Shown in pieces: positions 1 through 49,379 of a stretch of 64,000 bases of DNA. The notes beneath the pieces were generated by a model that made no database searches, was not told the DNA's origin, and saw only the letters and a list, made by a program, of their open reading frames with translations. Within the stretch, counting starts at the first letter, position 1; every line of letters begins with the position of its first letter. The stretch is from Escherichia coli (GTDB taxonomy: Bacteria; Pseudomonadota; Gammaproteobacteria; Enterobacterales; Enterobacteriaceae). Where the stretch lies: assembly GCF_044324875.1 (NCBI RefSeq), contig NZ_CP172185.1, one strand, 5' to 3'. The translations under genes and the position numbers were made by a program.

Positions 1-1932
1 ACCGATACCGCGCCCCAGAGAAAGCAGAGCACCGCCCGGGGAAGTGAACGCAGCCAGCAGACCACCACGCAGCGTACCGAGTAGTCCGCGCACGCCACGA
101 AGCCGGACCGCAAGCCGTCCCGCACCGGTATCAAGACCGGCAAACAGCACACGCCAGCCGCCAATACCACTCATCGACCCACCGAGTACGCCGCGCAGCT
201 GCGTCAGTAACGGCAGCGCACGACCGAGGCCGGATGTGCCGGTCAGCAGGGAAAAGCCAAGACGCAGTTTTGCCAGCGGCCCCAGCAACACGCCGGTAGC
301 CAGTGACAGCGCCCCCGTGGCCGCAACCGCAGCCAGCAGTGCACCACCGGCAATCAGCAGTTGTTTTGTCAGTTCAGGGTGCGCCTGGGCCAGCGCGGTG
401 ACTTTCGCAATAACCCGGGTGAACGACTGCGTGACAGAACGCAGCGGCCCGTCAACGAGGTCAGCGACACGGATACGCAGCCCTTCCCATGCGCTGTTCA
501 GTGATTTCAGGTCGCCGTCCAGGTTGTCCGCCATGATTCTGGCGTTTTCTTCCAGTTCGCCGTTCGCTGCCTGAATCTCACGCGTCAGGCGCGGCAGGTT
601 TTTTTCGCCTGCCTGTTCAACCAGGCTCATCAGGGAGACATACGCCTCCTGCCCGGCAATATCTGAAAAGAACGAGACTTTTGCCGCGTTACCGTATTTA
701 CGGGTGGCCTGATACAGCTCATACAGGATATCTTCCATCGGGCGCATGTTCCCGTAAGCATCCTGCGTTTCCACGCCCAGCTGTTTCAGCGCCTTTGCTG
801 CCGCTTTAGGCGGGTTCACAAGGCGGGACAGACTGGAGCGCAGCGCCGTACCAGCATCACTGCCACGTATCCCCATCGACCCAAGCAACCCGGTCATGGC
901 TGCGGTCTGTTCAAGAGACAGACCGAGTGAGGCGGCGACCGGTCCCGTATATTTCATCGTCTCACCAAGCCCGCGCAGGTCGGTATTGGTGCGGGTGAAC
1001 GTTGCGGCCAGCGTGTCACCCACGCGGTTCATCTGGTCGGCAGACAACCCGAACTGCGTAAGGATATTTGAGCTGATATCGGCCGTCTGACCGAGGTCCA
1101 TGCCGCTGGCCGTTGCCAGATTCAGCACGCCGGGAAGAGCCGCCTGTATCGCCTGCGGCGTGAACCCCGCCATGGCAAGGAACGCCTGACCGCTGGCAGC
1201 ATCACCTGCGGTAAACTGCGTTTCGGAGCCGAGTTTAAGCGCCTGTTCGCGCAGCGCCTTAAACTGCGGACTGTTTTTGTCAATACGGGTCAGCGCCTGG
1301 ACGCGCGACATCTCCTTACCAAAACTGACCGCCGGTTGCAGGAAACGCCCGGCCGCATAGCCACCTGCCGCTGCCGTGCCGACTGCCGTAAATCCACCCG
1401 CTTTCAGTTTTCCCGCCATCTCCTGAGCGCGGAAATATTGCTGGCGTGCCTGCGTGACGCGTGCCAGAGTCTGCCGTTCACGTTCCAGCTGTTCGTTGTA
1501 TTGCTGTGTTCGCCGTATGGCCTGTTGAATGGTGTTGTCACTGCCGGAAAGCGCAATACCGTGACGCCGCAGCTCACCACCCAGTTCGCGCATTCGCTGA
1601 ACTTCACGCGCACGGACCTCATTGAGACGCTCAAGTTTGAGGCTCAAATCGTTCATCAGCTTTTTCTGTTTGTCAGACAGCACGGTTCCGGCGCGCTGAA
1701 TTTGCTGAAGTGCGCTTAACTGGCGTTGTGCCCGGGCAATGCCGTTTCCGGCCTTGTTTGCAGCCTCGCGGGCGCGATCAAATGAACGGGCGTGGCGTTC
1801 CAGGTTTTTGATCGCACCCTGCGTTCTCTGTATGGAGTCGCCAAGCTGGCCCATCATGCGACGGGCGTTTTCGGTGGGACGGGTCAGCCTGTCAACAGCG
1901 CTGAAGGCGACCCGTATATCAAGCGTTTTCAT
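1..1932 (-). CDS. P2-like phage tail tape measure protein (gpT-like), 3' end runs off the window
   Basis: ATG at 1932-1930 on the minus strand. Hand translation of 1621-1932 gives an uninterrupted, coiled-coil-like sequence (MKTLDIRVAFSAVDRLTRPTENARRMMGQLGDSIQ...). Position after E/E' matches P2 F-operon order. The plus-strand ORFs in the track here are antisense artefacts. Confidence 0.75.
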   Translation of the reverse strand, partial: MKTLDIRVAFSAVDRLTRPTENARRMMGQLGDSIQRTQGAIKNLERHARSFDRAREAANKAGNGIARAQRQLSALQQIQRAGTVLSDKQKKLMNDLSLKLERLNEVRAREVQRMRELGGELRRHGIALSGSDNTIQQAIRRTQQYNEQLERERQTLARVTQARQQYFRAQEMAGKLKAGGFTAVGTAAAGGYAAGRFLQPAVSFGKEMSRVQALTRIDKNSPQFKALREQALKLGSETQFTAGDAASGQAFLAMAGFTPQAIQAALPGVLNLATASGMDLGQTADISSNILTQFGLSADQMNRVGDTLAATFTRTNTDLRGLGETMKYTGPVAASLGLSLEQTAAMTGLLGSMGIRGSDAGTALRSSLSRLVNPPKAAAKALKQLGVETQDAYGNMRPMEDILYELYQATRKYGNAAKVSFFSDIAGQEAYVSLMSLVEQAGEKNLPRLTREIQAANGELEENARIMADNLDGDLKSLNSAWEGLRIRVADLVDGPLRSVTQSFTRVIAKVTALAQAHPELTKQLLIAGGALLAAVAATGALSLATGVLLGPLAKLRLGFSLLTGTSGLGRALPLLTQLRGVLGGSMSGIGGWRVLFAGLDTGAGRLAVRLRGVRGLLGTLRGGLLAAFTSPGGALLSLGRGIG

Positions 1933-2082
1933 GCTCTGCGTTCCCGCTGCGAAGGGCCGCCCGCTCACGCCAGGCGACCACCTCGCCGGGATCCATCAGG
2001 AAGATTTCAGCGGGAGACCAGTTGAAAATAACGGCGATATCCGCCACAAAGTCTTCAATATGCTCAAAGGGCACGACGGTTA

Positions 2083-2445
2083 TCAGCCTGCCGTCGCCGC
2101 CACGCTCTTCCCGCCAGAGTCCTGACCGGCCAAAAAATTAACCGCCACCCCGCACAGCTGAATAAAATCAGCGGACCCCATGCGCTTAAGCATAACCTCG
2201 TCCAGTCGCGGCGAAGTGACGCGCGGGAGTAACTCAAACATCGCGTCCGTTTTCATGTTCAGCACGTCAAGCAGTGACAGCCCGCGCAGTGAACCGGCCT
2301 GCTGTACAGCAGGCGTGATTTCCACATACGTGATTTTTTTGTTACCGAGCACAAGGGGTGTTTTCAGTGTCACGCCGCGCTCACTGGTCACGTCAGCCAC
2401 ATCAGCACCGTCAGTAACAGGGGCAACAACCGGATTTTCTTTCAT
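2083..2445 (-). CDS. P2-like tail assembly chaperone gpE; slippery TTTTTTG near the 3' end implies an E+E' frameshift product
   Basis: 120-aa ORF with GAGG ribosome-binding site before ATG 2445. Lies between the tube gene and the tape-measure gene. Heptamer TTTTTTG (minus-strand sense of 2131-2137) is 16 codons before the stop. Confidence 0.7.
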   Translation of the reverse strand: MKENPVVAPVTDGADVADVTSERGVTLKTPLVLGNKKITYVEITPAVQQAGSLRGLSLLDVLNMKTDAMFELLPRVTSPRLDEVMLKRMGSADFIQLCGVAVNFLAGQDSGGKSVAATAG

Positions 2446-2494
2446 GAATAAAACCTCAAATCAGGGGCGACGCCACGCGCCGCCGTGGAAAACA

Positions 2495-3013
2495 TTAACC
2501 ACCAAGACCAATCGCCGAGCGCACGCGGTCCGGGAAGACGCTTTTGCCGTCCTTGCGTTCGATGTGGTTCAGTAAATCAATCTCCAGCACCGGACGGTCG
2601 TTAATGCTGAGTTTGTAGTAGGTACTTTTGACCGCATAGGTGTGAGACGTGACCTCACCCTGTTTGGCCTCCCCGGTATCAATTTCCGTCACGCGACCGC
2701 GAAGCTCAATCTCGTACAGGTCACTCTGTTCTTCATCGTTGTAGTACTCACCGACAAAGCGCAGCAGCGTACCGTCAATCGTGCCGCCGTACTTGAGGAA
2801 CAGTTCGCGGGTCGGCCCGCCCATGGTGAAACTCGCATCCAGCGCGCCGTCATCCAGGCCAAGGTCGATATTTACTGCACCGGCCATACCACCACCGCGA
2901 TAGGCTTCCGTTTTACGGGTCAGTTTGGGGGGCGTGAAGCCGGTCACCCTGCCAATCTGGTTCACCCCGTCAGTAAACAGCGTGAACACCCTGAGATTTT
3001 TTGGTACGGCCAT
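2495..3013 (-). CDS. P2-like tail tube protein (gpFII-like)
   Basis: 172-aa ORF immediately downstream of the sheath gene; its ATG overlaps the sheath stop (TAATG). Size and position fit gpFII. Confidence 0.8.
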   Translation of the reverse strand: MAVPKNLRVFTLFTDGVNQIGRVTGFTPPKLTRKTEAYRGGGMAGAVNIDLGLDDGALDASFTMGGPTRELFLKYGGTIDGTLLRFVGEYYNDEEQSDLYEIELRGRVTEIDTGEAKQGEVTSHTYAVKSTYYKLSINDRPVLEIDLLNHIERKDGKSVFPDRVRSAIGLGG

Positions 3014-4296
3014 TAAGCACCTCCAAGCGTCGCAAATGCAGGACCAAAGAATTCATCAGTAAACGTCTGGTAAAGTTCCATATCCTCAAGCGGCGGAACG
3101 GGCGTGTACTTGTAGCGGATACGCACGCGTCCCTGACGAAGTTCCGTGGTGCTGTTATCCACCACGTCATACCAGCACTCCGCACCAACGAGACGTCCTG
3201 ACGTAACCAGCGCATCCAGTTTTGCGCGAATTGCGCTTAACACGTCTTTCACATTAGCAGGGGTCAGCGGGGCATCAATCGTTTCAAACTGCGCTTCCGC
3301 AACAGAATCAGCCAGCACCTGAGCGGTTCGCGTGTACACCTCAAAGATATACGCCTTCGTTTCCGGCGTACGGTTGCCCCAGAAGCGGAAACCGTTACGG
3401 CGAATGATGGTGGTGATTTCCTTGTTGTTGAGATTGTTGGCATCGCTGTCTTCGGACTGAAGGGACCAGAACACCCGGCTGGAAATACCCAGCACATTTC
3501 TTACCGGCACGTTGGACAGCGATTTATGCCAGCCCTGTTCGTGGTCAATACGTGCACGTAAACCGCAGGCGTACGCCGCAGCCGGGAAGACCTCATTAGC
3601 GCCGGATTTCGGGTTATAGGCGATGAAGTCAGGCCAGAGCAGCATAAGTTCGCGCTCGTTAAATCTGGCGCGGTAGCTGATTGCATCAGCGGGCTTCTTG
3701 CAGTTGTGACAGCCCGCGTAGACAAATGCGCGAAGTTTTTCTGCAATTACACACAGGGATTTTGTGACAGCTTCAGTATCCAGTCCGGGAGCTGCGATGA
3801 TGCGCGGACGGTAACCGATGGCATCATCCTGTTCAGCTATCAGAAGTGCATACATACCGGTATAATTACCGTCGCCATCCGTGCCACCAATGACATACTG
3901 GTCCTGCGTTTTGTGTGGGTATACAGGATGTGCATCTTCAGACTCATCAATACCAAAAAATGCCCTGTCTTCAGGATCCAGATGACCGAATGATGTAACT
4001 CCTGTATCCGGGGCGCCCTGAGAACTGGCATCAGGAACGCGCACCACAATCACCTTCGTGCTCACCTGGTCGGCGACAGCCTTAAGCGATTTGTAAAGCG
4101 TCCCCTTTGTGCCGGCCTTACCCAGCACATCACTGACGCGGGTCAGCAGTGTGGGTTTGTTCAGCGGGAACAGAGTTTCATCCGCGTCATCTGCCGTAGC
4201 CACAATACCAATAACACTGGAATCCACATCATTAATGGCGGTGGCAAGGCCGGTACTTTCCCTTACGCGCGCACCATGAAAGCGTGTTTCACTCAT
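3013..4296 (-). CDS. P2-like contractile tail sheath protein (gpFI-like)
   Basis: Track ORF 3013..4443; the likely true start is ATG 4296 (MSETRFHGARV...), preceded by AGGGTG. 427 aa with conserved sheath motifs (GFRFWGNRT, YTPVPPLE). Confidence 0.8.
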   Translation of the reverse strand: MSETRFHGARVRESTGLATAINDVDSSVIGIVATADDADETLFPLNKPTLLTRVSDVLGKAGTKGTLYKSLKAVADQVSTKVIVVRVPDASSQGAPDTGVTSFGHLDPEDRAFFGIDESEDAHPVYPHKTQDQYVIGGTDGDGNYTGMYALLIAEQDDAIGYRPRIIAAPGLDTEAVTKSLCVIAEKLRAFVYAGCHNCKKPADAISYRARFNERELMLLWPDFIAYNPKSGANEVFPAAAYACGLRARIDHEQGWHKSLSNVPVRNVLGISSRVFWSLQSEDSDANNLNNKEITTIIRRNGFRFWGNRTPETKAYIFEVYTRTAQVLADSVAEAQFETIDAPLTPANVKDVLSAIRAKLDALVTSGRLVGAECWYDVVDNSTTELRQGRVRIRYKYTPVPPLEDMELYQTFTDEFFGPAFATLGGA

Positions 4297-4369
4297 ATGT
4301 TTCACCCTTGTCTGGCTGGTTGATTTTGCGTAATCATTACCCACACACGCGGTAATCTCACCCCTTTGA

Positions 4370-4393
4370 TGTTGTCTCCTGACAGCGACAACA
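4370..4393. promoter_or_regulatory. Ogr/Delta-type late-promoter activator site (TGTTGTC-N10-GACAACA, containing TGT-N12-ACA)
   Basis: Perfect 7-bp inverted repeat with the P2 late-promoter TGT-N12-ACA geometry. Centred about 85 bp upstream of the FI ATG and about 77 bp upstream of the D ATG. Confidence 0.55.
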
Positions 4394-4457
4394 AAACAGC
4401 CATTCAACGCCGCTACGGTGCATGAAACCATTACAGAACGCACCAGGAGAGAACACC

Positions 4458-5549
4458 ATGAAAGAGCTGTCAGTTACCGTTCCGTCACCGGATATCGACA
4501 TCACCATCAACAACAACACACTGGCAAACCTCACAGAGCGACTCATGACGCTGACCCTGACGGATAACCGGGCCTTTGAGGCAGACCGCGTCACCCTCAC
4601 CCTTGACGATACGGACGGGCAGTTACAGTTGCCACCACGTGGCGCACGCCTGAGAGTGATGATTGGCTGGCGCGGGGAGGCGCTGGTTAACAAGGGTGTC
4701 TACATCGTTGATGAAGTGACGTGGGAAGGCCCGCCGGACAAACTGACCATCACCGCCAGCAGCGCCGATTTTCGCGAAGAGTTCAACGTGAAGCGTGAAG
4801 TCTCCTGGCACGACGTGACGGTAAAACAGGTTGTGTCAGCCATCGCGCACCGCTACGGCCTGAAAGCACAGATAAGCGATATCCTCATGGATATCGAAAT
4901 TGACCACGCAGACCAGACCGAAGAGAGTGATATATCCTTCCTGACCCGCATGGCTGAAATGCTGGGTGCGATTGCCACCGTAAAAAACGGCAGCCTGTTA
5001 TTCATTCTGCCGGGTGGCGGAACCGGGCCGGACGGAAAAGCCCTGCCTTCGTTCGCCATTACCCGCAGCAGCGGCGACAGTCACCGCTTTCGCATTGCTG
5101 ACCGTGATGCGTATACGGGGGTCCGGGCGCACTGGCTCGATCTGAAGTTCGGGCAAAAGAAAAAAGTGAACGTGAAGCGACGCAGGGAAGCCGGGAAACA
5201 GAAACAGGAGAAGAGCAGCAGCCGGGAAGGTGATTACATGGAAGGCGCGGAAGGTAACGTCTACGTTCTGCGCAGGACTTACCAGAATGAAGAAACCGCA
5301 CGACGTGCAGCAGCTGCAAAGTGGCAGGAACTACAGCGGGGCGCGGCATCATTCTCCATCACGCTGGCGCGCGGTCGTGCCGACCTGTACCCTGAAATGC
5401 ACGGCAGGGTAACAGGTTTTAAAAGCGAGGTGGACAATCAGGACTGGATTATTGCCAGGGTGGAGCACAGCATAGATGAAAGCGGCTTCACCACACAACT
5501 GGAGCTGGAAGCGAAAATCCCCGAATGGATAGCAGATTCAGGCGGATAA
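4458..5549 (+). CDS. P2-like tail protein D (gpD-like)
   Basis: Track ORF 4422..5549; the ATG at 4458 has an AGGAGA ribosome-binding site. Translation is gpD-like along its length (conserved SWHD, FLTR, DRxAYTGV, AKWxxLQRG, GFTTxLELE). Confidence 0.8.
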   Translation: MKELSVTVPSPDIDITINNNTLANLTERLMTLTLTDNRAFEADRVTLTLDDTDGQLQLPPRGARLRVMIGWRGEALVNKGVYIVDEVTWEGPPDKLTITASSADFREEFNVKREVSWHDVTVKQVVSAIAHRYGLKAQISDILMDIEIDHADQTEESDISFLTRMAEMLGAIATVKNGSLLFILPGGGTGPDGKALPSFAITRSSGDSHRFRIADRDAYTGVRAHWLDLKFGQKKKVNVKRRREAGKQKQEKSSSREGDYMEGAEGNVYVLRRTYQNEETARRAAAAKWQELQRGAASFSITLARGRADLYPEMHGRVTGFKSEVDNQDWIIARVEHSIDESGFTTQLELEAKIPEWIADSGG

Positions 5550-5592
5550 AATTAAAATGAGCCATCTCCACTCAGCCAGATAAGGAGAAGCC

Positions 5593-5844
5593 ATGTTCCG
5601 TTGTCCCCTGTGCGGTGCATCCGCACGTATCCGCACCAGTCGCAATGAAAATGATTCAGGCACAGTTCGCCTGAAGTACTACCAGTGCAATAACCTCGAA
5701 TGCGGGATCGGCTTTACCACACTGGAGGGTTTTAACAAATTCACATCAAAACGCGCCCCGTCGCCGCAGGGTACAGAGCGGATACCGTGGGAAGATTTTC
5801 CGGGATCTCACAGGGGGAATGCTCAGATGAATCTTGATATTTAA
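5593..5844 (+). CDS. ogr: Ogr-family zinc-finger late-gene transcription activator
   Basis: 83 aa. Begins MFRCPLCGASARIRTSRNE with CPLC...C(N)NLEC zinc-finger spacing. AAGGAGA ribosome-binding site. Confidence 0.85.
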   Translation: MFRCPLCGASARIRTSRNENDSGTVRLKYYQCNNLECGIGFTTLEGFNKFTSKRAPSPQGTERIPWEDFPGSHRGNAQMNLDI

Positions 5845-5990
5845 GAACAATAATCAGGTTGAGAGGACATCATAAGGCAAGTAGATTAACGGCAGATACT
5901 TTCCCGCAACCACGGGCAAGTATTTAATTATCCATGATGAAATATGACCTAAATTGTTTTTTGCCCGCCGGAAAGCGGGCATTTTTTTAT
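5845..5990 (+). repeat. Repeat unit A: sequence downstream of ogr ending in an intrinsic terminator (candidate phage right arm plus att core)
   Basis: Shares the core ggttgag...agtagattaac...ttatccatgat...gcccgcc-N-gcgggc-T7 with units B and C. Confidence 0.6.
5963..5988 (+). terminator. Intrinsic terminator, copy 1 (gcccgccggaaagcgggc + T7)
   Basis: GC stem-loop followed by a T-run on the plus strand. Confidence 0.75.
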
Positions 5991-6202
5991 TCTTTTGTGG
6001 TTATGGGGTCATCAGGAACCACGTGCAGATTATATTTTTGTTTTTTTGGCGTTCCTCCGGCAGCAACGAGTTCATCAATAAGACACTGACACGCCTGAAC
6101 ATCCCGGGCATGTCTTAGTTTCACCTTTATTGATTTAACCTTATCCTCACCGGAGGAGAAATGCAGTTCAATCTCAATATCGTTTCTTCGGAACAATCTC
6201 AT
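5987..6202 (-). CDS. Hypothetical small protein (71 aa) in an AT-rich islet
   Basis: ATG at 6202 preceded by a GGGGGG ribosome-binding site. AT-rich promoter-like sequence upstream, with TATAAT-like hexamers. No family recognised by eye. Confidence 0.45.
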   Translation of the reverse strand: MRLFRRNDIEIELHFSSGEDKVKSIKVKLRHARDVQACQCLIDELVAAGGTPKKQKYNLHVVPDDPITTKE

Positions 6203-6429
6203 ACGCCCCCCTGAATATATCAGAAATGCTAGTATCGAAAAATGAGAAAACAGTTAGACAGGAGAAACATATTAACACAAATCATTTATACCTATAGATG
6301 AAATTATAATTTCATTCATGAATATGATAGATAACTATATTGTGAACAAAATGAAAAATGGCTAAATTAAAAATGGGCATGGAGGAATGCCTCGTAATCA
6401 GTAATACATGATCCATACTTCCTTGTTTT

Positions 6430-6455
6430 GCCCGCCGGAAAGCGGGCATTTTTTT
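6430..6455 (+). terminator. Intrinsic terminator, copy 2 (hairpin identical to copy 1)
   Basis: gcccgccggaaagcgggc + T7. Together with copy 1 it forms a near-identical ~30-bp direct repeat flanking the AT-rich islet. Confidence 0.75.
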
Positions 6456-6657
6456 GGCGGTTACCATCGCCTCACCTTCCTGGTTCACACAAAGCAACCC
6501 TGATTTTCCATGAAAACTTCAGGGTTGAGCCAAAAGCACAAAGACAGTAGATTAACCAAGGGTACCCGCCACCTGCCAACAGGAACGGTATCCAGTACGT
6601 ATTAATGACTGACAATTCACATTGCTGTTTTGCCCGCCAGAAGGTGGGCATTTTTTT
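6456..6657 (+). repeat. Repeat unit B: paralogue of units A and C, ending in terminator copy 3
   Basis: Aligns by eye with unit C over about 200 bp. Contains a degenerate ogr 3'-end-like segment (ttcaca...gattttcc). Confidence 0.6.
6632..6657 (+). terminator. Intrinsic terminator, copy 3 (gcccgccagaaggtgggc + T7)
   Basis: GC stem-loop followed by a T-run. Confidence 0.7.
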
Positions 6658-6861
6658 GGCAGTTATCATGGACGCACCTTCATGACACATATTAAGCAGA
6701 CCTGATTTTTCCATGAAAAATTCATGGTTGAGACAAAAGCACAAAAACAGTAGATTAACCACGGGTGCCTGCCACCTGACAACAGGAAGGGGTGTCCATT
6801 ATCCATGATATACAAACGAAAAGTCTTGTCTTTTGCCCGCCGTTGCGCGGGCTTTTTTTTT
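6658..6861 (+). repeat. Repeat unit C: paralogue of units A and B, ending in terminator copy 4
   Basis: Same architecture as unit B. Confidence 0.6.
6835..6861 (+). terminator. Intrinsic terminator, copy 4 (gcccgccgttgcgcgggc + T9)
   Basis: GC stem-loop followed by a T-run. Confidence 0.7.
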
Positions 6862-6890
6862 GCCACCCTCACCAGTGAGGGTACCATCAT

Positions 6891-7112
6891 TCAGAGGCGC
6901 GTAAGCCACCCGGCGTTAACATCCTGCCCGTCAACCCTGACCGCAGAGTCTGAACGGCAGGCACCGGAAGCAGTACCAAAAACACCTCTGACAAGTTCCG
7001 CCACCTTCCCGATATCATCAGGCGCCACATTCCTCACCTCGACAGTGATCCGTGGCGTACCATCATCGTTAACAAGCGTGGCTTTAAGGCTGGTACGACG
7101 GGCAAATAACAT
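6891..7112 (-). CDS. Hypothetical small protein (73 aa)
   Basis: ATG at 7112 with an AGGGAGG ribosome-binding site about 9 nt upstream. GC-rich, between repeat unit C and the copA promoter. No family recognised. Confidence 0.45.
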   Translation of the reverse strand: MLFARRTSLKATLVNDDGTPRITVEVRNVAPDDIGKVAELVRGVFGTASGACRSDSAVRVDGQDVNAGWLTRL

Positions 7113-7172
7113 CAACACCCCCTCCCTTCGGTTCGTTGCACTGGCAGCACGATACCACCAGGAAAAAGAAAA

Positions 7173-7203
7173 GCCCACAACGTCAGGATTGCGGGCTTTT
7201 TTT
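7173..7203 (+). terminator. Intrinsic terminator, copy 5 (gcccacaacgtcaggattgcgggc + T7), related to copies 1-4
   Basis: Stem-loop followed by a T-run, directly upstream of the copA promoter. Confidence 0.65.
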
Positions 7204-7269
7204 CTTCAAAAATGGACACTACGTGGACACTGATTAAATAATCCTTTCTTAATCAGACTGTTAAAATGC

Positions 7270-7300
7270 TTGACCTTCCCCTTGCTGGAAGGTTTAACCT
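7270..7300 (+). promoter_or_regulatory. copA promoter with CueR (MerR-type) operator
   Basis: -35 TTGACC followed by the dyad CCTTCC-N7-GGAAGG within a long spacer, the known PcopA/CueR architecture. Confidence 0.8.
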
Positions 7301-7340
7301 TTATCACAGCCAGTCAAAACTGTCTTAAAAGGAGTGTTTT

Positions 7341-9845
7341 ATGTCACAAACTATCGACCTGACCCTGGACGGCCTGTCCTGCGGTCACTGCGTTAAACGC
7401 GTGAAAGAAAGTCTCGAACAGCGCCCGGATGTTGAGCAGGCGGATGTGTCTGTCACTGAAGCGCACGTTACCGGGACTGCCAGTGCAGAACAGCTGATCG
7501 AAACCATCAAACAAGCGGGTTATGACGCATCTGTAAGCCACCCAAAGGCTAAACCGCTGGCGGAGTCATCAATCCCGTCGGAAGCACTGACAGCGGTTTC
7601 TGAGGCGCTTCCGGCAGCGACCGCCGATGACGATGACAGCCAGCAGTTGCTGCTGAGCGGCATGAGCTGCGCCAGCTGTGTCACCCGCGTACAAAATGCG
7701 TTGCAAAGCGTACCGGGCGTCACTCAGGCACGGGTAAACCTGGCGGAGCGTACTGCGCTGGTGATGGGCAGTGCCTCCCCACAAGATTTAGTGCAGGCGG
7801 TGGAAAAAGCGGGCTACGGCGCGGAAGCGATTGAAGATGACGCTAAACGCCGCGAGCGCCAGCAGGAAACCGCCGTCGCTACGATGAAGCGCTTCCGCTG
7901 GCAGGCAATTGTCGCACTGGCGGTGGGTATCCCGGTGATGGTCTGGGGGATGATCGGCGATAACATGATGGTCACCGCTGACAACCGCAGCTTGTGGTTA
8001 GTTATCGGCCTGATAACCCTGGCAGTGATGGTTTTCGCCGGCGGCCATTTTTACCGTAGTGCATGGAAAAGCCTGCTGAACGGTGCAGCGACGATGGATA
8101 CGCTGGTGGCGCTGGGTACTGGCGTGGCGTGGCTCTATTCGATGAGCGTCAACCTGTGGCCGCAGTGGTTCCCGATGGAAGCGCGACATCTTTATTACGA
8201 AGCCAGCGCGATGATTATCGGTCTGATCAATCTCGGTCATATGCTGGAAGCGCGCGCACGTCAGCGTTCTTCAAAGGCGCTGGAGAAATTACTCGATTTA
8301 ACCCCACCGACGGCGCGCCTGGTCACCGACGAAGGTGAAAAAAGCGTGCCGCTGGCGGAAGTGCAGCCAGGTATGTTGCTGCGCCTGACGACCGGCGATC
8401 GCGTGCCGGTAGATGGCGAGATTACCCAGGGCGAAGCATGGCTGGATGAAGCGATGCTGACGGGCGAACCAATCCCGCAGCAAAAAGGCGAAGGCGATAG
8501 CGTCCATGCCGGGACAGTGGTACAGGACGGCAGTGTGCTGTTTCGTGCCAGTGCGGTCGGCAGCCATACTACGCTGTCACGAATCATTCGCATGGTGCGC
8601 CAGGCCCAGAGCAGCAAGCCTGAAATCGGCCAACTGGCGGATAAAATCTCCGCTGTGTTTGTGCCGGTGGTGGTAGTCATTGCGCTGATCAGTGCGGCAA
8701 TCTGGTATTTCTTTGGTCCGGCACCGCAGATTGTCTATACCCTGGTGATTGCCACCACGGTGCTGATTATCGCCTGTCCGTGTGCGCTGGGACTGGCGAC
8801 GCCGATGTCGATTATTTCGGGCGTCGGGCGGGCGGCTGAGTTTGGTGTGCTGGTGCGGGACGCCGACGCGCTGCAACGCGCCAGTACGCTCGACACCGTG
8901 GTGTTCGATAAAACCGGGACGCTGACCGAAGGGAAGCCGCAGGTTGTCGCAGTAAAAACATTTGCTGATGTTGATGAAGCGCAAGCATTGCGTCTGGCGG
9001 CGGCGCTGGAGCAAGGTTCCAGCCACCCGCTGGCACGGGCGATCCTCGATAAAGCAGGTGATATGCAGCTACCGCAGGTCAACGGTTTCCGCACATTGCG
9101 CGGGCTGGGTGTGAGCGGTGAAGCTGAAGGTCATGCGGTATTGCTGGGCAATCAGGCGCTGTTAAATGACCAGCAAGTTGATACTAAAGCGATTGAGGCA
9201 GATATTTCAGCTCAGGCATCGCAAGGTGCAACGCCTGTGCTGCTGGCGGTTGACGGGAAAGCGGTAGCCCTGCTGGCTGTACGCGATCCGTTGCGTAGTG
9301 ATAGCGTGGCGGCGCTGCAACGCCTGCATAAAGCGGGATATCGTCTGGTGATGTTGACCGGGGATAACCCAACCACCGCCAATGCGATCGCCAAAGAAGC
9401 AGGGATTGATGAGGTGATAGCCGGCGTGCTGCCGGACGGTAAAGCCGAAGCGATCAAACGTCTTCAAAGTGAAGGACGTCAGGTGGCAATGGTGGGCGAC
9501 GGCATTAACGATGCGCCAGCGCTGGCTCAGGCGGATGTCGGTATTGCGATGGGTGGCGGCAGTGATGTTGCCATTGAAACCGCGGCGATTACCCTGATGC
9601 GCCATAGCCTGATGGGTGTTGCAGATGCGCTCGCGATTTCCCGCGCAACGCTGCGCAATATGAAGCAGAACCTGCTCGGTGCGTTTATCTACAACAGCAT
9701 TGGTATTCCGGTCGCCGCCGGTATTTTGTGGCCGTTCACTGGAACACTGCTTAACCCGGTGGTTGCCGGAGCGGCAATGGCGCTCTCGTCGATTACCGTA
9801 GTGAGTAACGCCAACCGGTTACTGCGGTTTAAACCGAAAGAGTGA
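7341..9845 (+). CDS. copA: Cu(I)-translocating P-type ATPase
   Basis: 834 aa. Two N-terminal CxxC metal-binding domains, CPC motif, DKTGT phosphorylation site. Confidence 0.97.

Positions 9846-33843: not shown

Positions 33844-36996
<3,153 letters not shown>

Positions 36997-45832: not shown

Positions 45833-49379
<3,547 letters not shown>

Follow-up and report, generated by a model that had tools for sequence, protein, structure and literature searches.

The window analysed here, a 64-kb stretch of Escherichia coli DNA, opens with a run of phage tail genes called from an open reading frame listing and family scans (PHROG, TIGR, and Pfam). The minus strand carries T, E, FII, and FI and the plus strand D and ogr, the two groups diverging from a 161-bp spacer between FI and D (4297-4457), as an earlier sequence-only reading had described. 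The features of this region are as follows.

1..1932, minus strand: first 644 codons (N-terminal part) of tape measure gene T, uninterrupted by a stop; the gene continues past the left window edge (PHROG 28 tail length tape measure, E=3e-158; TIGR01760)
1919..2137, minus strand: E′ frameshift extension (~1919-2074) and slippery TTTTTTG (2131-2137), read from the sequence
2083..2445, minus strand: E, tail assembly chaperone, 120 aa (PHROG 103 tail protein, E=2e-31)
2495..3013, minus strand: FII, major tail tube, 172 aa (TIGR01611 tail_tube, over the curated cut-off; PHROG 55)
3013..4296, minus strand: FI, tail sheath, 427 aa (PHROG 23, E=1e-118; Pfam Gp18_domIII_N, Phage_sheath_1, and Phage_sheath_1C)
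3913..4011, minus strand: 33-aa sheath insertion, FI residues 96-128, from alignment with P88, P2, and two further relatives (L007 and L049)
4333..4338, minus strand: predicted FI late-promoter -10 hexamer AATGAT, centred 46 bp from the dyad centre; predicted start ~4326
4370..4393, no strand: Ogr-type activator dyad TGTTGTC-N10-GACAACA (predicted site), centre 4381.5; TGT-N12-ACA core at 4373-4390
4423..4431, plus strand: predicted D late-promoter extended -10 TGaAACCAT, hexamer centred 47 bp from the dyad centre; predicted start ~4437-4438
4458..5549, plus strand: D, baseplate hub / late control D protein, 363 aa (PHROG 52, E=8e-153; Pfam Phage_GPD)
5593..5844, plus strand: ogr, Ogr/Delta zinc-finger late activator, 83 aa (Pfam Ogr_Delta, PF04606, E=8e-14; RefSeq name)
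5845..7288, no strand: prophage right arm, running to the attR core CTTGACCTTCCCCTTGCTGG (7269-7288) in the copA promoter

The PHROG, TIGR, and Pfam matches agree with the P2-family assignment that had been made from the letters alone, and every gene visible in the window is intact, frameshift site included. The slippery heptamer near the end of E is of the P2 type, and the same -1 frameshift in E/E′ is marked in the record of P2. The window thus holds a P2-type contractile tail module (FI, FII, E/E′ with its -1 frameshift, T, and D) together with the Ogr/Delta zinc-finger activator of Peduoviridae (PF04606), whose translation carries four cysteines spaced C-X2-C-X24-C-X4-C. In many relatives D and ogr are set apart by 1-4 kb of cargo, so the two do not necessarily form one transcription unit.

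No head, lysis, replication, or integrase gene occurs within the 64-kb window, as had been noted before, because the window begins inside T. The rest of the phage can be seen in E. coli strain LH50-c, where a locus (L001/L090) 99.4% identical to the window and sharing its copA junction contains a whole ~35 kb P2-like prophage, integrase through ogr, bounded by glsA and copA. This prophage carries integrase, repressor, replication endonuclease (gene A), portal, terminase, scaffold, capsid, and lysis genes, the P2-type head and packaging set (Q, P, O, N, M, L), and the baseplate and fibre genes V-W-J-I-H-G, followed after G by U-T-E′-E-FII-FI on the minus strand and then D-ogr on the plus strand. 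The part of T in the window is 100% identical to its intact ORF of 1173-1185 aa, and RefSeq names a GpE family phage tail protein at the position matching E′. The 20-bp att core recurs as a direct repeat on the attL side of the near-identical genome, adjoining the integrase, and most E. coli genomes match the window only from 7269 onward, a pattern consistent with a prophage that integrated in the copA promoter region. The same junction is present in five genomes at 97.7-99.4% identity, and the one examined has full modules and intact att repeats. To judge from these relatives, the window very probably captures the right end of a complete P2-family prophage of E. coli.

The sequence-only reading had spoken of a remnant, a tail-only cluster, or a fusion of two remnants, and in favour of a tail-only P2-like remnant or R-type tailocin cluster, tail genes, D, and ogr alone are visible inside the window. 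R-type pyocins and P2-derived tailocins also share the sheath, tube, tape measure, and hub gene families. Tailocins such as the PA0614-PA0628 cluster, however, are not known to carry genes for head, replication, or integration, and their FI...U-D order is generally collinear. The full prophage to the left in the 99.4%-identical genome, with its head, lysis, replication, and integration genes, the position of the window edge inside T, and the intact state of all visible genes make such a cluster very improbable. Still less can be said for a recent local inversion, a misassembly, or a segment actively flipped by a phage invertase. Directly beside U, phage P88 does carry a gene for a DNA invertase and a fibre segment that can invert, but in the phage type of the window neither an invertase gene between G and U nor such a segment is present, no inverted repeats that could mark an inversion or an invertase site flank the FI-to-U block, and isolated phages of four genera, 28 E. 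coli genomes, and 80 of 80 related viral loci from IMG/VR (D 73-97% identical) all show the block in a single orientation. We regard this explanation as close to excluded. The sequence-only reading had held that its interpretation would fall if a complete, collinear genome showed the tail genes sharing the strand of D; the nearest genome is complete and is not collinear, and the non-collinear order is the normal state of that genome.

The inversion of the FI-to-U block relative to P2, which the sequence-only reading had recognized, characterizes a clade and is very unlikely to be a local event. FI-to-U opposite to D-ogr across a short divergent FI/D spacer, as in P88-type architecture, is found in P88, 520873, phiT5282H, Kp4851-1, and Kp4860-2, and in phages of four Peduoviridae genera (Xuanwuvirus, Novemvirus, Reipivirus, and Reginaelenavirus). 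P2, SopEphi, and 4LV2017 are collinear, and their D proteins are ~47-51% identical to that of the window by tblastn. The inverted block is the normal, conserved gene order of P88 and its relatives, a large known phage group, to which the prophage belongs. The order is not mentioned in the P88 paper, a 2026 paper on P2-like diversity, or a C. rodentium prophage paper, and our search of literature on Xuanwuvirus and on Ogr with a dyad returned nothing about it.

P88 and other Xuanwuvirus phages have a gene order identical to that of the phage type in the window, with H-G and, further on, D and ogr on the plus strand and U-T-E′-E-FII-FI between them on the minus strand. The annotated FI-D spacer of P88 is 157 bp, compared with 161 bp in the window, with an equally placed dyad, and a second dyad lies in the P88 terminase/scaffold spacer. 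P88 is inducible and lytic, and phiSM is spontaneously active (PMC5285337, PMC6456863). The tail proteins of P88 are 62-80% identical to those of the window, its sheath lacks 33 aa, the left half of its dyad reads GTTCTC where that of the window type is perfect, and its attachment site is different. An ICTV genus requires at least ~70% whole-genome nucleotide identity to a member. The near-identical complete prophage aligns with P88 over ~57% of its length at 74% identity, which amounts to ~43% intergenomic similarity, and megablast of window positions 1-5900 covers 60% at 75%, so the phage falls below the 70% threshold for Xuanwuvirus. Novemvirus phiT5282H, Reipivirus Kp4851-1, and Reginaelenavirus Kp4860-2, from Enterobacter and Klebsiella hosts, share the inverted order and the conserved dyad (GTTGTG-N10-CACAAC in Kp4860-2), although their proteins are more distant (FI 61-67%, D 68-74% identical).

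In the FI/D spacer, the perfect TGTTGTC-N10-GACAACA dyad reported by the sequence-only reading is exact, and it is one of two matches with at most two mismatches in the 64-kb window, where 0.27 would be expected. At Ogr-dependent late promoters of P2, transcription needs both the activator and the alpha subunit of RNA polymerase. The FI/D spacer has the sequence features of such promoters, with TGT-N12-ACA ~55 bp upstream of the predicted starts, no -35 element, and weak -10 elements; sigma-70 consensus promoters are absent from the spacer, as expected for activator-dependent promoters. TGT-N12-ACA is also the published consensus of P2 late promoters, and in Smp131 one element is reported to serve both PP′ and PO′ (PMC3931495). 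When the spacers of relatives are compared, the half-sites ACAAC and G-T-x-T form the most conserved block while the 10-bp centre varies. Among 10 diverse relatives the A and T positions of the FI-side hexamer are invariant, at the distance seen in P2 pF, pO, and pP, as are the T, G, A, and T of the D-side extended -10. Hexamers of the form nAnnnT occur 45-48 bp from the dyad centre on 11 of 11 promoter sides in the window, the LH50-c locus, P88, and P2, although these -10-like hexamers are weak and a single such match within a 4-bp range arises by chance about one time in five. The left half-sites of the P88 type (GTTCTC) lack the canonical TGT, so the rules of Ogr recognition here may differ from those of P2 Ogr.

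A precedent for the geometry is found in P2 itself, in whose record a single activator site (3057-3087) is annotated for the divergent promoters pP and pO, which start at 3016 and 3127. The dyad centre is 55-56 bp away from each of those starts and 46-47 bp away from the -10 hexamers, so that one dyad sits midway between divergent late operons, the same layout that is predicted for FI/D. P2 uses this design for its packaging and head operons, and its tail genes FI...D are transcribed one way, as a single operon from pF; in the phage of the window the design appears to be used for tail genes as well. The terminase and scaffold genes of the complete relative also diverge, and a one-mismatch copy of the dyad sits halfway between them. 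That copy and the FI/D dyad are the only two such sites in its prophage, the same two recur in P88, and no third, pV-like dyad was detected in the complete relative (TGT/ACA core, up to four mismatches).

Spacer conservation and the pP/pO geometry support the suggestion, already made in the sequence-only reading, that this credible Ogr-type site is placed to serve both FI and D. The competing view is that the dyad is an inherited pF site that activates the FI operon only, with D transcribed from an independent promoter that is constitutive or otherwise regulated. The ancestral site in P2 served one direction only, the D-side hexamer AACCAT is weak, and neither side of the spacer shows a sigma-70 consensus promoter. 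Yet the D-side TG-n-nAnnnT is invariant among the 10 relatives and lies 47 bp from the dyad centre, the distance seen at mapped P2 late promoters. In addition, the dyad is almost midway between the FI and D start codons (85.5 and 76.5 bp), and D is an essential late tail gene for which the spacer offers no other candidate promoter. We consider an FI-only site unlikely, and a single Ogr site driving both FI and D appears well supported by comparison.

Our main reading, to which we give a probability of about 85%, is that positions 1-7288 represent the right end of a ~35 kb P2-family (Peduoviridae) prophage with the P88-type divergent layout, in which a single Ogr dyad would serve two promoters. 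We infer a single ancient inversion, in which the ancestral F operon (FI-FII-E-E′-T-U-D) would have been broken between U and D, with FI-to-U and its late promoter becoming fixed in the opposite orientation and creating a divergent control region. Ogr would bind one symmetric dyad ~55 bp upstream of two activator-dependent promoters with the predicted starts given above, the FI-side promoter transcribing FI-FII-E/E′-T-U and the other D. We lean somewhat towards the broader hypothesis that after this inversion the symmetric activator site of pF came to work in both directions, such that the late regulon of the whole clade would run from two bidirectional Ogr sites (terminase/scaffold and FI/D). 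If so, this would be a natural case of a one-way activator-dependent promoter turned two-way by the dyad symmetry of the activator site alone. The second shared Ogr site, as comparative evidence suggests it, would be a small, testable addition to the model of P2 late regulation, and the literature searched yielded no discussion of it. The finding is real but ordinary, and understanding of these phages is unchanged. For annotation, an FI-to-U block that diverges from D-ogr should be taken as the usual arrangement in a widespread enterobacterial branch of Peduoviridae, and not as a tailocin or as a P2 remnant that has decayed or been rearranged.

Two smaller observations concern the tail block. 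In the LH50-c locus, where G and U converge, a simple scan revealed no terminator between them. The FI sheath is longer than that of P2 (396 aa), as the sequence-only reading proposed, but its extra segment is narrower than the stretch of about residues 90-150 first proposed: residues 96-128 are absent from P88 (394 aa), P2, and the two other relatives aligned. The insertion falls between the Gp18_domIII_N and subtilisin-like domains and, on this alignment, appears to be specific to the lineage.

The right end of the prophage carries the FI-to-U block on the strand opposite D and ogr. ORF listing and family scans upheld the gene calls of the sequence-only reading, and both its 161-bp FI/D spacer and the perfect Ogr-type dyad within it stand as described. 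The features are:

1-1932, minus strand: T, tape measure, 644 codons without a stop, continuing past the left edge
about 1919-2074, minus strand: E' extension (sequence and RefSeq annotation)
2083-2445, minus strand: E (ORF listing and family scans)
2131-2137, minus strand: P2-type slippery heptamer TTTTTTG for E' (sequence)
2495-3013, minus strand: FII, tube (ORF listing and family scans)
3013-4296, minus strand: FI, sheath, 427 aa (ORF listing and family scans)
4297-4457, divergent: FI/D spacer, 161 bp
4333-4338, minus strand: predicted FI-side hexamer AATGAT (distance from dyad centre and alignment)
4370-4393: dyad TGTTGTC-N10-GACAACA (exact match, sequence read)
4423-4431, plus strand: predicted D-side element TGaAACCAT (distance from dyad centre and alignment)
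4458-5549, plus strand: D (ORF listing and family scans)
5593-5844, plus strand: ogr (Pfam Ogr_Delta, E=8e-14)

The order of these genes is indeed inverted relative to P2, but a local event is not supported, since the arrangement is shared by all of the closer relatives surveyed. The nearest isolated phages are P88 (NC_026014) and other Xuanwuvirus (60% of window 1-5900 aligns, at ~75% nucleotide identity); in the P88 record the genes from U to FI are read from the minus strand and D from the plus strand. The block of U, T, E, FII, and FI lies opposite D and ogr in 80 of 80 IMG/VR loci that encode D relatives 73-97% identical, and also in Escherichia phage 520873 (Xuanwuvirus), Enterobacter phage phiT5282H (Novemvirus), and the Klebsiella phages Kp4851-1 (Reipivirus) and Kp4860-2 (Reginaelenavirus). 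Active switching, a recent inversion event, and an assembly error are all disfavored, because no inverted repeats were found bordering the FI-to-U block and the opposite orientation was seen in none of the relatives examined. We read the inverted order as belonging to the clade as a whole rather than as a local event. In contrast, P2, SopEphi (Felsduovirus), and 4LV2017 (Elveevirus), whose D proteins are ~47-51% identical (tblastn), retain the collinear FI...U-D-ogr order. Because these more distant phages are collinear, the inverted order would most simply derive from one old inversion, presumably with one breakpoint upstream of pF and the other between U and D. The arrangement is compatible with a working phage, since P88 can be induced and is lytic, and spontaneous activity is described for phiSM (PMC5285337, PMC6456863).

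The window had been read as holding a P2-like remnant with a tail-only cluster, a view made improbable by a near-identical locus. Twenty-eight complete E. coli genomes match 80% or more of window 1-7340, most closely strain LH50-c (99.4%, sharing the copA junction). To the left of its matched region lies a complete P2-like prophage, in which U and the baseplate, fiber, head, and lysis genes are all present:

integrase (adjoining glsA), then repressor and replication endonuclease
minus strand: portal, terminase
plus strand: scaffold, capsid, small terminase, head completion, lysis, R, S, V, W, J, I, H, G
minus strand: U, T, E', E, FII, FI
plus strand, after FI: D, ogr

A 20-bp direct repeat, CTTGACCTTCCCCTTGCTGG, occurs beside the integrase (7671-7690 of the LH50-c locus L090, attL core) and at window 7269-7288 (attR core), where the match to most E. 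coli genomes begins; the element is therefore ~35.2 kb with intact att sites. Only tail genes are visible in the window because it starts within T, and the window element is probably not a remnant, its completeness being taken from relatives 97.7-99.4% identical. The whole T ORF, as read in LH50-c (L001 18410-21967, minus strand), is unbroken and of unusual length (1173-1185 aa vs. 815 aa in P2), with a repetitive, Pro/Val-rich C-terminal third; PGAP labels it a partial pseudogene. Between this complete prophage and P88, 57% of the length aligns at 74% identity (~43% overall), below the usual genus threshold, and by this comparison we assign it as an additional P88-type member of the Peduoviridae outside Xuanwuvirus sensu stricto. 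Phage genomes that have been deposited and classified already show the inverted order, and we found no papers discussing it or the shared FI/D dyad. The locus is an ordinary prophage end, correctly observed at first reading and overinterpreted.

The dyad contains TGT-N12-ACA, the core reported for the late promoters of P2 (PMC3931495). Among ten diverse relatives no part of the FI/D spacer is better conserved than its half-sites (left G-T-x-T, right invariant ACAAC) around a freely variable 10-bp center, the pattern expected for a protein-binding dyad, here a predicted site. The sole other strong copy in the complete relative (TGTTGTC-N10-TACAACA, one mismatch) is at the midpoint between terminase and scaffold, which are also divergent, and both sites recur in P88. 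In the GenBank record of P2 there is one annotated 'activator binding site; pO, pP promoters' (3057-3087), with mapped starts at 3016 and 3127, 55-56 bp to each side of its center. When all promoter regions were measured in one register, an nAnnnT hexamer was found 45-48 bp from the dyad center on every side examined (window FI and D; complete relative P and O; P88 FI, D, P, and O; P2 P, O, F, and V). Among the ten aligned FI/D sequences, neither the A and T of the hexamers nor the D-side TG varies. From the conserved dyad, the pP/pO geometry, and this spacing, we propose, with a probability of roughly 65-70%, that a single Ogr site between the FI operon and D would fire both, copying the P2 design of one activator site for two divergent promoters. 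The main rival is that the dyad serves FI only. Transcription is predicted to start near 4326 (FI side) and near 4437-4438 (D side). Allowing up to two mismatches, the dyad pattern has two matches in the 64-kb window, where 0.27 would be expected; the second match (TGTTCTG-N10-GACAACA, 49234-49257, two mismatches) is far from the prophage and probably due to chance.

In P88-type relatives, the gap between D and ogr is a hotspot for cargo. Many of the fetched IMG/VR loci (L008, L011, L014, and many others) hold 1-4 kb there, including a SIR2 and HerA defense pair on the opposite strand (L042 7062-11107); the window gap is 43 bp and empty. By analogy with the P2 record, ogr probably keeps its own promoter. 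The P88 RefSeq annotation (L002) lacks ogr, and tblastn places a 72% identical homolog in the unannotated gap after D (34476-34724, plus strand).

As first noted, the sheath is longer than P2 FI, with an extra segment in its first third. It aligns end to end with the sheaths of P88 (394 aa) and P2 (396 aa) except for one acidic 33-aa insertion (residues 96-128), which follows the Gp18_domIII_N segment (28-87) and precedes the subtilisin-like domain (159-310), a position at which larger sheaths carry extra surface domains. Shared with the closest IMG/VR relatives (L005 and L006, FI aligning full length at 98-99%), it is a minor lineage-specific feature. In phage 520873 (L087 5613-7774), the FII match and a partial FI match lie ~2.1 kb apart, which suggests that its sheath gene carries an insertion or is disrupted.

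Between ogr and the prophage end are three paralogous units (5857-6860), each with a sigma-70-like promoter (TTGAG[A/C]-N17-TAGATT) and a ~95-nt body that has a hairpin at its 5' end and is A/U-rich in the middle, ending at terminators:

5959-5988, 6628-6657, and 6831-6860, plus strand: strong rho-independent terminators of the three units
6426-6455: fourth terminator copy

These look like small-RNA genes, a prediction from their layout; they gave no match above noise in Rfam and none in the phage collection, and among fetched loci are confined to the closest relatives. The att core lies within the copA promoter and spans its -35 element (TTGACC) together with the left half-site of the dyad CCTTCC...GGAAGG, the CueR operator. 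DNA upstream of the attR core is phage DNA throughout; the core is duplicated, so the copA promoter is intact at attR. A literature search found nothing on a copA-promoter attachment site. A minus-strand ORF of 95 aa (6891-7205) had no NCBIfam match, and RefSeq has a shorter hypothetical protein at this position. This ORF and a terminator-like hairpin at ~7166-7200 (sub-threshold Thr_leader, 26.9 bits vs. a gathering score of 55) lie in the att-proximal arm, which is variable among relatives integrated elsewhere.
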